64,000 bases of DNA from Okamejei kenojei (lineage: Eukaryota). The stretch lies in assembly GCA_035221665.1 (NCBI GenBank), contig CM069131.1:158472001-158536000 (forward strand). The letters are read 5' to 3'. Positions 13,201 through 49,515 of this stretch are shown piece by piece (the first letter of the stretch is position 1; the number at the start of each line of letters is the position of its first letter). The translations under genes and the position numbers were made by a program. The notes beneath the pieces were generated by a model. That model had not been told where the DNA came from, did not search any database, and worked only from the letters and a program-made list of their open reading frames with translations.

Positions 13201-13881
13201 TTATGTAAACAAATCTGGGATGTCACTGCACCTGCTTATACTGTATGCGCTATTTGGAGCAACAGTATACTCCAATATAAGCAATCAGCATCGATTTAAA
13301 AACCATGGAGTAATTGTATAAAACTGAGTTTAAAGTAAATGGCTCGATCCTTCTTAAATATGCAGCAGATATCCACATCAATGCTGAGATCGCAGATAAA
13401 TTATTTATTTTATATTACTTTATGCTCATTGATGTTTACTATAGTGTTGATGAATGAAACAAGTATTCCTAGAATAGATACAGTACAGATCAGGTAGACT
13501 TCACACCAAATGCACAGTAAAGTTCACTCTACTCACCTTCAGCCTTAGCTGTTCTGGTCCTTTCAAGTTCAATTTGAAAATGGAGTATGTTTTTTGTGAT
13601 AAACGTTAAGCAACCAATAAATATTCCCCAGGACAGGAATAGAGAATCCTTGACCCCAATTTATAGTCTGGAGAGAAAGGCTCATTTCATCTAACAGAGA
13701 ATGGAGATTTGCCCATCAGTCACGGCCCAGATATAAGCGATGACAATTAAATCATTCAGCAGAGTCTGACTAGGAACCAGTAAAGTGTGAGAGCTACTTA
13801 CATGTAGATGCTTACATGTTAAATGTACAAAATCATTCTTAAATCTGATTGGAATTCACTTCTTGGAATAATCCTAGTCCT

Positions 13882-14020
13882 TCTTCTTCTTGCGTATGGC
13901 GTGCACAGCCTAAAGTTGTAGGACAACTTGTTCTATTTGATCTTATTTGATTGTGCACGCCAGGTTGATTGCATTTGTCGAAACAGGGCGGACCACGTTA
14001 AGGTTGCAATCTTCCACCCC
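13882..14020 (-). mobile_element. ~140-bp SINE-like retro-element: HDV-like ribozyme head, hairpin and (AAG)n tail
   Basis: 11-bp TSD ATCCTAGTCCT at 13871-13881 and 14021-14031; AAGAAGAAG tail; second copy at 48819-48887. Confidence 0.9.
13967..14020 (-). ncRNA. Minimal HDV-like self-cleaving ribozyme motif (54 nt)
   Basis: P1 GGGGUGG/CCGCCCU with G1-U wobble; J1/2 AA; P2 GAUUGCA/UGCAAUC; P3 ACC/GGU; L3 UUAACGU; G; P4 U-UUCG-A; J4/2 CAAA. Confidence 0.8.
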
Positions 14021-14758
14021 ATCCTAGTCCTAAATATCTTCTTAGCCAATTTTATGTCCCTGCACCTATTTTGTTGTTTCATACAAAACATGGCCACAAG
14101 AGGTCAGGTTTTCCCATTTGAAAAATGAAAGTCGACACATGGTTAAAAACGTCAGATGTTAAATCTTCCATTAAAACACTCTCAAATTCCCTAGATATTT
14201 TTTGAATGAATTCAGATCAACCTGACCCAAAGTTGTTTCAGTTATATTTCTTTATCAGTTCCGTGATGTTTAAAATGGCCTTGAATTCCAAAACCATCCT
14301 TTTATCCATATAGAAGTTTACAAACAGGCTAGCTCTTGGCTCAAAAAGTATTGCGTTTATGAACATGGTTTCAAACATTTTCTTTCAATGTCACAATACT
14401 TTAAATTAGGTGGATTGTTTGTATTCTGTATTGTTTTCTGCAATTGTTTAACTCACTCGCGTTGTGTTATCAACATCAGCTTGTTCTTTGAATCGACCAT
14501 CACAGATATTTGACCACTTATTTATGGTATGATATCATCATAATTCCGTTACTAATTCCATGTTTTTTTTTCTTCCCACTTCTCTGACCATAACTTCCAC
14601 TGCACTAGGGCTGCTTGGAGAGTTGGCATCAACATAAACATTGTTTGTTCGGATCACTCTTAAATCAGTTATAACCTCAGTACCAAAATGCTTTATCCAT
14701 GAGAAAAATCATTAGCATGATCATGTAAATAATTATCCACATTTGGAGATCTATTATT

Positions 14759-15908
14759 TAACTAGACCAAGTGTGGACCCGTTGGCTCCCGTTCCCCCAA
14801 TGCAATATTTCACCAATGTGCATCTGCGGCCTGACGGGTTCCCGTTGTGAAACCAGAGATCCCTGTTGTGACACGAGTCACGGCAACCGTCCCCCAACTG
14901 CGAAGGCGCGGCCGGCAAGTGGAAGTGTGACTGCAACGTTTTTAAAGTTTAAAATGGCAATAACTTGTAAAATATAAGATCAATGTGAACGCACCTCACT
15001 CTCCCTCTTCAGTCCCCTATTCCCCTCCTCCATTATCCTCCCTTTCCCCACCCTCCACCAACCCTTCTCTGCTTCCTCCGCTCACCGCCTCCCTCCTCTC
15101 CCCTCCTCCTCCCCTTCTCCAATACCTCGCCATCCCTCTTCCTACCACTATCCTCCTCCATTCCCCCTCATCCCCCAGCACTTCCTCCCCATCCTCACTC
15201 TTCTTTCCCCTGCTCCTCCCCTCCCCACTCCCTCCCTCACTCTCTCTCCCTCTCCTTTCCCCTACCCTCAGTCACTCCCTCCCTCCCTCCCATCCCTCTC
15301 CCATCTGTACCCCCATCCTCTCCCTCTATCCCCTCCTCTCCCTCTATCCCCCTCCTCCCCCACTGCTCACATCCCCCCTATCCCACCCCCCCACTCCCTC
15401 GCCTCCACCACTGCCCTCCTCTCCTTCTATCCCCCACTCCCTACCTCTCCCACTCCCTCCCTCCTCTCCCACTATCCACTCTCCTCACCTCCCCCTTTCC
15501 CCTCCCTCTCCTTCCCTCTCCCTCCCTACCCTCTCCTCTCCCTCAAGCCCCCTACTCGCCCCCCTCACCTCCCTAGGATCTCAATGTAAACTACCATTGG
15601 CCCCGTTTTCTCTACCACTGCCTCATCACTGGCACCATTGTCAATTGTGACATGGCTGACAGGCCTCCCCCAAATGCACAGTCATGGCGGGCATGTGAGG
15701 GCACTGTATCAAGTTGTTTAAGTTTTAAATATCAATAACTTCTAAAATATAACATCAATCTGAACAAAACTTGTTTCATTTACATCGCAGGACAATGGTG
15801 AGTAAGATGCGCCAAAAATTGTAGCGCTATCATGTACAATTTTTGCGGAGTTTTGGGAACACACACATATACAAACGAACAAACAAGATGAGAGTTTTAG
15901 TAATATAC
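14759..15908 (+). mobile_element. Non-autonomous Helitron/Helentron (DINE/HINE)-like element with a C/T-rich core
   Basis: Starts ACTAGACCAAGTG..GACCCGTTGG; ends with (ACAA)-like microsatellite then AGTTTTAGTAATATA; same termini as 61813-63446; no TSD seen; class is inferred. Confidence 0.55.
14995..15575. repeat. Polypyrimidine/polypurine low-complexity tract
   Basis: Almost only C and T on the + strand over ~580 bp. Confidence 0.95.
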
Positions 15909-15957
15909 TAGACCAAGTGCACTTGGTCTAGTATATTACTAAAACTTTAATCTTGTT
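15882..15957. repeat. 76-bp palindrome with a perfect 54-bp core (15893-15946)
   Basis: AGTTTTAGTAATATACTAGACCAAGTG|CACTTGGTCTAGTATATTACTAAAACT. Confidence 0.95.
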
Positions 15958-15964
15958 GGGTCGC

Positions 15965-16610
15965 ATCACATTGGGTCTGCTCCCCCAATGCTCTCATTCC
16001 CTACCCGTAGTCCCCGTGGCAGGTGTAGTCCTCCAACTCAAGCCGTTCCCGAATGTTAGATTCCAGCACTCCCCTGACTCCCTCAGCAGTGGGCTTAAAT
16101 AAAAATTCCAATTGCACTGGCCCTGCATGTTGCAATAGCAATTCGCCCTCACCCTCCTGTGTGGTGAAAAGTTCAGAGTGTTCATGTGTCGCAACATTGT
16201 ATTGAAGTGTGTTGGAAGCTGGCAGGAATGATTTTAACAGTAAAAATCTTGTGAAAGTTGGCATTTTTAAAGCTTTCATCGCGAATAACGTGAACTTAAT
16301 CAGTAATATTGATGAATAAAGCATAAAATGTTCAGTGAATGTGCTCTCTGCCTAGAGGGGAAAAATGTGAATCAGAATATGTAAATATCTTGTGAAAGTT
16401 GAAATTTTTGAAGCTTTAATCACGAATAACGTGAAATATAGCATGAAATCTTCAGTGAAGCTGATCACTGCTAGCTGAGCCATTGTGACATCATCAATTG
16501 AAGCTGGTCATTTTAAATTTAAAGTCTTTTGATTTTTTTAAACTTTAATCAGTAATAAGTTGAGAATGTCGAGAAATAAAGCATAAAATGTTCATATGAT
16601 AGATAGATAT
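15965..16610 (+). mobile_element. Second Helitron-like unit of a related family with internal direct repeats
   Basis: TTGGGTCTGCTCCCCCAATGC resembles the head at 14780; ATCTTGTGAAAGTTG..CGAATAACGTGAA repeated at ~16245 and ~16387; ends GATAGATAGAT. Confidence 0.4.
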
Positions 16611-48402: not shown

Positions 48403-49515
48403 TTGCCACAAAAGTGGATAACCTCATATTTATCCACGTTATACTGCATCTGCCATGTATCCAACCTATCCAAGTCGCCCTGCAGCCTAGTAGCATCCTC
48501 ATTCCAGCCTACACTGCCACCCAACTTTGTGTCATCTGCAAACTTCGAGATGTCACATTTAATTCCCTCGTCTAAATTGTTAATATATATTGTAAATAAC
48601 TGGGGTCCCAGCATTGAGCCTTGCGGCACCCCACTAGTCACTGCCTGCCATTCTGAAAAGGAGCCATTAATTCCTATTCTTTGCTTCCTGTCTGCCAACC
48701 AGTTCTCTATCCATGTCATACCCTACCCCCAATAACATGTGCTCTAATTGTGCACACTAATCTCTTGTGTGGGACCTAGTCAAAGGCTTTTTGAAAGTCT
48801 AGATACACAACATCCACTAAATAAGATCAAATAAAACAAGTTGTCCTACAACTTTAGGCTGTGCACGTCATACGCAAGAAGAAGAAGACCACATCCACTG
48901 GCTCTCTGTGATCCATTCTACTGGTTACATCCTCAAAAAATTCCAGATGATTTGTCAAGCATGATTTCCCCTTCATAAATCCATGCTGACTTTGACCTGT
49001 CACTGCTTTCCAAATGCGCTGCTATAACATCTTTAACAATCGACTCAAGCATCTTCCCCACCACCGATGTCAGGCTAAATGGTCTATAATTCCCCGCTTT
49101 CTTACTCCCTCCTTTCTTAAGAAGTGGAGTTACATTAGTTACCCTCCAATCCACAGGAACTGATCCAGAATCGAGAGAACATTGGAAAATGATCACCAAT
49201 GCATCCACAATTTCTAGGGCCACCTCCTTGAGTACTCTGGGATGCAGACTGCCCTGGAAATCCATCTGCCTTCAGTCCCAACAGTTTACATAACACCATT
49301 TCCTGACTAATGTGGATCCCCTAGTATTTCTGGGAGATTGTTTGTGTCTTCCTTAGTGAAGACAGAACCAAAGTACTTGTTTAACTGTTCTGCCATTTCC
49401 TTGTTTCCCGTTATAAATTCACCTGTCTCTGATTGTAAGGGACTTACATTTGTCTTCACTAACCTTTTCCTTTTTATGTATCTAAATAATCTTTTCCTTT
49501 TTACATATTTAACAT
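48403..49515 (-). mobile_element. CR1 LINE RT part
   Basis: SGVPQGS.LGPQLF, SKFADD, NYRP.SLTS. Confidence 0.9.
48819..48887 (+). mobile_element. 5'-truncated copy of the HDV-ribozyme SINE (tail only)
   Basis: Near-identical to the reverse complement of 13882-13948; TSD ACAACATCCACT (48807-48818) / ACCACATCCACT (48888-48899). Confidence 0.9.

Follow-up and report, generated by a model that had tools for sequence, protein, structure and literature searches.

The window is a 64,000-nucleotide stretch of contig CM069131.1 of Okamejei kenojei. Its minus strand carries a 139-nt non-autonomous retroelement, which is framed by an 11-bp target-site duplication (TSD) and opens with a predicted HDV-like ribozyme (Table 1). 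Every feature listed by an earlier reading made from the sequence alone (hereafter the sequence-only reading) is present where that reading had placed it, in minus-strand orientation with G1 at 14020. The filler between the LINE-derived segments matches neither LINE end; by eye, most of it repeats in tandem the LINE bases just before it. The 11-bp stem (13962-13952/13907-13897) displays perfect complementarity and encloses a 7-bp hairpin (13929-13913). The tail of the window copy is (AAG)3. An ATG at 13974-13972 overlaps J4/2 and P2, and in LINE copy L154 it shares the reading frame of the endonuclease start; in the window copy the frame closes after 13 codons, and coding capacity is absent.

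The second family copy of the window sits within a CR1-like RT remnant. A long palindromic stretch at 15863-15977, which scored far under the cut-off with plant miRNA hairpin models, is probably a MITE-like element.

Table 1. Features of the retroelement and of a second family copy (positions of the window; nt, position in the element)
Feature	Position	Strand	Remarks
Non-autonomous retroelement, 139 nt	13882..14020	minus	bipartite derivative of a Vingi-like LINE
TSD, 5′ copy	14021..14031	minus	11 bp, adjoining G1
TSD, 3′ copy	13871..13881	minus	11 bp, exact
LINE 5′-end-derived segment	13940..14020	minus	nt 1-81
Junction filler	13927..13939	minus	13 nt, between the LINE-derived ends
LINE 3′-end-derived segment	13882..13926	minus	ORF stop, short 3′ UTR, (AAG)n tail
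11-bp stem, 5′ arm	13952..13962	minus	nt 59-69
11-bp stem, 3′ arm	13897..13907	minus	nt 114-124
Predicted HDV-like ribozyme	13967..14020	minus	54 nt (nt 1-54); predicted cleavage 5′ of 14020
P1, 5′ strand	14014..14020	minus	nt 1-7; partner nt 30-36, 13991-13985
P2, 5′ strand	14005..14011	minus	nt 10-16; partner nt 48-54, 13973-13967
P3 and 7-nt L3	13992..14004	minus	P3 nt 17-19/27-29; L3 nt 20-26
P4	13978..13983	minus	nt 38-43; a single U-A pair that closes UUCG, as in the LINE
J4/2	13974..13977	minus	nt 44-47, C-N-A-A
Second family copy, 5′-truncated	48819..48885	plus	nt 73-139, without ribozyme; ~9-bp TSD

A high-copy family and its partner LINE

A genome search with the element yielded 40 scored copies with 89-100% identity. 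Exact matches genome-wide numbered 6,791 for a 27-nt pattern of the 3′ end and 8,744 for a 26-nt pattern of the 5′ end, and the reversed-pattern controls gave 0 in both cases. We sampled the first 100 matches listed for the 3′ pattern, all on contig 1 and chosen by their 3′ end only. Since 48 of these 100 also carry the 5′ pattern, the family numbers no fewer than 8,744 copies, and about 18,000 by a rough estimate in which old copies are under-counted. The start lies at nt 1-3, within 2 nt of G1, in 92 of the sampled copies. TSDs of 8-16 bp flank 76 of these 92 full-length copies, compared to 1/92 flank-swapped controls, and in 62 of the 76 the TSD ends no more than 1 nt from G1. Tails hold 0-6 AAG units, with a mode of 3-4. 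Variable TSDs, simple-repeat tails, and occasional 5′ truncation are hallmarks of TPRT. The exact-pattern counts against zero controls and the TSDs against flank-swapped controls indicate that the family is not a product of chance, and they bear out the sequence-only reading of a high-copy retroposon that begins at G1.

That reading had also seen no Pol III head, and the family agrees. ARAGORN detected no tRNA in the window copy, Rfam returned no tRNA, 5S, 7SL, or ribozyme match to it at E ≤ 10, and among the 100 sampled copies a B box occurs in none and an A box in one. The element is thus not a SINE in the strict sense, with a tRNA, 5S, or 7SL head and Pol III boxes. Subfamilies differ at nt 8, 32, 45, and 58-61 and in the middle of the element, with no two-sided compensatory change. 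In assembled contigs from four runs (four organisms), the family is present with the same boundaries; contigs cannot show RNA starts, and these four sets, one of which is probably DNA, cannot prove transcription of the family.

In L115, L116, L101, and L163 the 5′ part is inverted; the breakpoints fall on the P2 inverted repeat, close to it, or deeper in the LINE, possibly via twin priming or template switching at P2. The TTA just before the 3′ stem arm is interrupted in about 17 of the 100 matches listed for the 3′-anchored pattern described below, as counted by eye (e.g., L117, L118, L155). These insertions duplicate the TTA and end in short terminal inverted repeats, and we take them to be Harbinger-like.

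A 3′-anchored pattern that omitted the short element's upstream letters had 127 genome matches, and 3 of the 100 listed run into a different shared sequence. One of these three, L101, is a decayed APE+RT element of ~2.9 kb with an inverted 5′ part, the endonuclease region of which has 35 matches in the genome. In LINE copies that retain their 5′ end, the ribozyme pattern of the short element, down to the one-pair P4, comes first and an ORF follows. Between G1 and the tail, copy L152 measures 3,045 bp. Two parts of the short element, nt 1-81 and nt 95-139, align to this LINE, and the 3′ segment is identical to LINE copy L163 at 42 of 44 positions. As the sequence-only reading had anticipated, an autonomous LINE common to both ends is found, in the form of a decayed 3.05-kb APE+RT element. 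No intact ORF occurred among the 20 LINE copies examined, in which the longest was 414 aa; genome copies reach 3.05 kb but are broken.

Because the LINE shares both ends, the element is no true SINE but an internally deleted LINE, and its predicted ribozyme is the 5′ end of that LINE itself. Its 5′ and 3′ ends stem from one LINE, the middle is deleted, and it is non-coding; the label SINE given by the sequence-only reading therefore yields to that of a bipartite non-autonomous LINE. Six LINE copies display 86.5% pairwise identity and the short copies 87.1%, so that the two are of equal age and were active together. Of 9 LINE copies whose head is in forward orientation, 5 begin at nt ~10-14, not at G1 (L151, L153, L155, L156, L157), and are without the P1 5′ strand, compared to 2/100 short copies.

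A family of ~122 nt with another junction accounts for about 14 of the 100 listed 3′-anchored matches (by eye), and further junctions occur in single copies. The deletion therefore occurred more than once, with at least two independent junctions and probably more, and every deletion retains the ribozyme head. The 5′ region and the 3′ UTR of the LINE, 3 kb apart, are already complementary over 8 bp, which the 139-nt subfamily extends to 10-11. This end-to-end pairing may have guided the internal deletions.

Three other searches led elsewhere. Among the matches listed for a 5′-anchored pattern that excluded the short element (100 of 625, contigs 1-3) were only indel variants, truncations, and inversions. 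A pattern that assumed a junction at nt ~108, ahead of the first endonuclease motif, had 0 matches; the real junction is at nt 81/95. A partner search with Pfam PF14529 recovered mostly CR1/L2-like elements and a two-ORF LINE, presumably I/Nimb-like, and none of 50 loci matched the element ends. One young two-ORF, presumably I/Nimb-like LINE, L081 (G000:C2:28.22-28.23 Mb), has an open second frame of 1,276 codons and an (AAG)n tail, with copies up to 99.8% identical.

The nearest database protein to the partner, P0002, is 75% identical; it is 1,019 aa long and contains only RVT_1 and two APE Pfam families, with RNase H absent. Most of 120 listed relatives share this APE + RT build without RNase H. 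In an RT tree (LG+G4, 22 of 43 rows) with no named RTE or Vingi reference among its tips, the partner falls into a 100/100 clade of ~1000-aa RNase-H-less ORFs. This clade stands apart from the RTE stand-ins, from CR1/L2-like and two-ORF I-like elements, and from an Ingi-like group that includes an element with RNase H and PHD (L268). The RTE stand-ins are two elements of this genome bearing DUF6451, a domain that we take as marking RTE. According to a 2026 review, Vingi is defined by a compact single ORF without RNase H (PMC13708176). The build deduced via P0002, a single compact ORF with APE and RT and no RNase H, fits this definition, and for this reason we call the partner Vingi-like, a placement made without a named Vingi reference.

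The predicted ribozyme and its counterparts in related LINEs

The head of the family follows the full HDV order P1-P2-P3-L3-P3-P1-P1.1-P4-J4/2-P2 with all helices paired. In the window copy, P1 includes the G1-U wobble and one further U-G pair, J1/2 consists of 2 nt (nt 8-9), and P2 of 7 Watson-Crick pairs. C13977 (C44) is the predicted C75 equivalent, that is, the catalytic C. At 13999 the window copy has A, where 87 of 92 copies have C (nt 22), the P1.1 partner of G37 (13984). The C22-G37 pair is kept in 85/92 copies and is absent from the window copy. The A-form L3 pattern has 20 matches genome-wide versus 8,744 for the C form, so that the A is a rare point mutation; the sequence-only reading had rightly expected C in the family. 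We rejected the A as a subfamily marker, suggested by the closest matches, on these counts and because those seeds are biased. Without the C of its sole P1.1 pair, the window copy should show poor cleavage at best.

Across the 92 full-length copies, the commonest core letters are U20 (90 copies), C22 (87), G25 (86), G37 (90), the catalytic C44 (86), and A47 (88). At each of 17 P1-P3 positions the commonest pair is kept in 74-91 copies; the G1-U36 wobble at the element's 5′ boundary occurs in 74 and an A17-C29 mismatch in P3 in 5. All 18 core pairs plus U20, G25, C44, and A47 are intact in 38 of the 100 sampled copies. Within the ribozyme, subfamilies differ in J1/2, in the N of C-N-R-A, and at one pair-preserving P1 site. 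The C-type copy L044 aligned to Rfam HDV_ribozyme in the expected register, with C44 on the J4/2 C of the model, at 22.9 bits (E 0.24), which is below the gathering score of 50 for this HDV-type family. LINE copy L154 had no Rfam ribozyme match at E ≤ 1. Single-strand folding of the element gave a z of -1.9, by a method that cannot show a pseudoknot. Three traits speak against the predicted ribozyme: the one-pair P4, the one-pair P1.1, and the 2-nt J1/2. Another HDV-like ribozyme, with a 1-nt spacer, is described as having little activity (PMC4908430).

Among the 92 copies, the only covariation was U5-G32/U5-A32, as few masters and neutral decay would leave. Since copies of one family cannot show covariation, we compared related LINEs. 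HDV folds lie 160-240 nt upstream of the endonuclease motif in two other families of this genome and in several metagenome relatives, and they differ in P1, P2, P3, and P4 sequence. An HDV descriptor matched upstream of 16/34 related ORFs, with different paired bases in P1, P2, and P3, compared to 0/34 reverse complements, 0/34 internal stretches, and 0/340 shuffles. This descriptor had been loosened after a first pass matched 5/21 metagenome loci, and its pair table is a fitted one because the descriptor selects for pairing; L204, L211, and L252, with too little upstream sequence, were left out of the scan. Several of the misses are 5′-truncated or visibly mutated loci. The covariation of P1, P2, and P3 predicted by the sequence-only reading is missing among the family copies and appears across related LINE families. 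Collectively, these data support an HDV-type structure conserved at the 5′ ends of the partner's clade, as judged from sequence comparison, the cleavage of the 54-nt version being a separate point. A fold that is kept while P1, P2, and P4 sequence changes across families points to an RNA-structure function.

By eye, the 5′ region of the Vingi-like relative L203 resembles an HDV variant with an L3 insertion and that of the relative L219 a variant of other layout, both missed by the descriptor. L186, L193, and L199 belong to a further Vingi-like LINE family of this genome, and L188-L190, L194, and L196 (G000) to a second; each family has its own HDV-like head with a long P4.

An Rfam scan of the relatives' heads covered 16 loci. 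L245 matched CPEB3_ribozyme with 55.6 bits (cut-off 35; E 2e-12), L240 reached 27.7 bits, and L201 and L212 scored ~30 bits against HDV-F-prausnitzii (cut-off 44). The CPEB3_ribozyme match, at L245:2188-2271 (same sequence in L244), is the 5′ end of a decayed Vingi-like LINE on a metagenome contig, and outside P4 this head is nearly identical to the mammalian CPEB3 consensus. The CPEB3 ribozyme may have originated from such a head, or the two may have converged on a constrained core. The CPEB3 ancestral paper, searched by term in its available text, gave no mention of origin or transposition.

Propagation of the element and alternative explanations

Given the size of the family, its sharp 5′ boundary, its TSDs, the two LINE-identical ends, the equal age, and an HDV sequence pattern common to the element, to its LINE, and to related LINE families, we consider it probable that the element arose from a 3-kb Vingi-like LINE by internal deletion and spread on the LINE's endonuclease and RT, with a predicted 54-nt ribozyme cutting at G1. 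The LINE copies that begin short of G1 and the broken LINE ORFs weigh against this. A master copy would be transcribed by Pol II, via read-through, as the sequence-only reading had supposed for a promoterless element, or via an internal promoter, and the ribozyme would trim upstream RNA at G1, leaving unit-length RNA. The LINE protein would then bind the shared 3′ ~45 nt and prime reverse transcription at the target nick. The short RNA would be copied in full, giving mostly full-length insertions. Because the RNA is short enough for full copying, most new copies would carry the ribozyme.

The predicted ribozyme likely sets the element's start, but an internal promoter would be just as able to produce a sharp start at +1. 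We see a small chance that in this same bipartite element the head acts mainly as an internal Pol II promoter, with cleavage secondary and starts at G1 without read-through. Pr77 of L1Tc/NARTc is a promoter and a ribozyme at once (PMC3383444), Kojima 2018 views bipartite LINEs as Pol II-transcribed with 5′ ends responsible for transcription (PMC5786205), and insertion dispersed over ~18,000 sites means that there is no fixed host promoter. Across LINE families, however, the head changes its paired sequence and keeps its fold, and the roles of promoter and ribozyme are not mutually exclusive. Somewhat less credible is a LINE-inherited fold that no longer cleaves in the short element and that, as a stable 5′ structure or protein site, aids RNA protection and full-length insertion. 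The minimal P4 and P1.1 and the weak Rfam score fit this, as does the cap-like protection that the review ascribes to the R2 ribozyme fold (PMC13708176); moreover, the younger 139-nt subfamily lengthened the separate 5′-3′ stem, not the ribozyme. Yet the catalytic core, taken by the commonest letter of each position (86-90 of 92), is compatible throughout with an active HDV core, and subfamily changes in the ribozyme are limited to the three places given above.

We give very little credence to the partner that the sequence-only reading had proposed, an RTE-clade LINE mobilising a SINE. TSD length and the trinucleotide tail are compatible with RTE, and RTE elements carry HDV-like ribozymes and yield bipartite derivatives (PMC5786205, PMC6765202). 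The LINE that shares both ends, however, groups by its RT with the RNase-H-less Vingi-like elements, apart from the two DUF6451 stand-ins for RTE. Nor is the (AAG)n tail diagnostic of RTE, because the two-ORF I-like LINE of the same genome carries it too.

Relation to known elements and implications

The kind of element is already known, since NARTc, RIME, and the R2 SIDEs are its closest counterparts. Like NARTc (from L1Tc) and RIME (from ingi) of trypanosomes, it is short, non-coding, and built of a LINE's first and last nucleotides (~77 and ~30 there), with an HDV-like ribozyme at +1, the cleavage of which is known in those elements and predicted here, and a TSD of 11-12 bp (PMC3383444). 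NARTc has its first 77 and last 30 nt in common with L1Tc and an active ribozyme, and the same 5′ 77 nt serve as ribozyme and internal promoter (PMC3383444). Unlike NARTc, which is 263 nt long and ends in poly(A), our element has 139 nt and (AAG)n. It also differs from NARTc and RIME in its animal host, ~18,000 copies, an RNase-H-less partner, and an almost absent P4. Drosophila R2 SIDEs likewise combine a 5′ ribozyme and a LINE 3′ end via internal deletion and are moved in trans (PMC3414825), but they are rare, rDNA-site-specific, and cut from a 28S co-transcript, whereas this family is dispersed and abundant, with an APE-type partner. Bipartite, ORF-less, and internally deleted elements also include the non-autonomous Vingi-1_EE derivatives (hedgehog) as well as Bov-A and RTESINE, both of RTE (PMC5786205). 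Further literature in this comparison is PMC4035085, PMC3391268, PMC5753468, and PMC13635239.

The predicted ribozyme shares its L3, single-pair P1.1, and 9-nt P1-to-P3 spacing with the Rfam CPEB3 consensus, and differs from CPEB3 in having 54 nt, a 1-bp P4, and thousands of copies versus one intronic copy. The human microbiome has reportedly been studied as a source of minimal HDV-like ribozymes.

Within the bipartite non-autonomous LINEs (Kojima 2018, PMC5786205), the family stands out by its Vingi-like partner, its unusually small predicted ribozyme, and its very high copy number. Among the full-text papers searched, judged by title, abstract, and passages, none describes a ribozyme for Vingi elements or for this family, which may already bear a name elsewhere. 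In the available text of Kojima 2018, Vingi is one of four clades producing bipartite non-autonomous LINEs and the sole one of them not listed with a ribozyme, and it is left open whether such elements stem only from ribozyme-bearing clades (PMC5786205). The available text of the 2026 review mentions no ribozyme in Vingi UTRs (PMC13708176). A ribozyme-headed Vingi-like LINE would fill this gap.

If active, the head would be among the smallest natural HDV-like ribozymes. Extrapolated from the 38 in 100, core-intact copies amount to ~2,600 among the 6,791 3′-pattern matches. Genome-wide there would be at most ~7,000, since the sample favours well-kept copies. With active ribozymes, these copies would cleave transcripts on a large scale in nature and would serve as a ready-made collection of mutants. 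From the element one can also read the minimal cis ends (~80 + ~45 nt) of a Vingi-like LINE; the Vingi clade is now in use for RNA-templated gene insertion. As the related LINE L245 has a CPEB3-class match at its 5′ end, an origin of the mammalian CPEB3 ribozyme from such a LINE can be put to the test.

Taken further, and as a tentative view that we consider less likely than not, HDV-like ribozymes may be general at Vingi 5′ ends, so that all four clades producing bipartite elements would be ribozyme-bearing and self-trimming would be what enables mini-elements. Thousands of intact 54-nt ribozymes would then cut host transcripts in this genome, and the mammalian CPEB3 ribozyme would be a domesticated 5′ end of a Vingi-like LINE.
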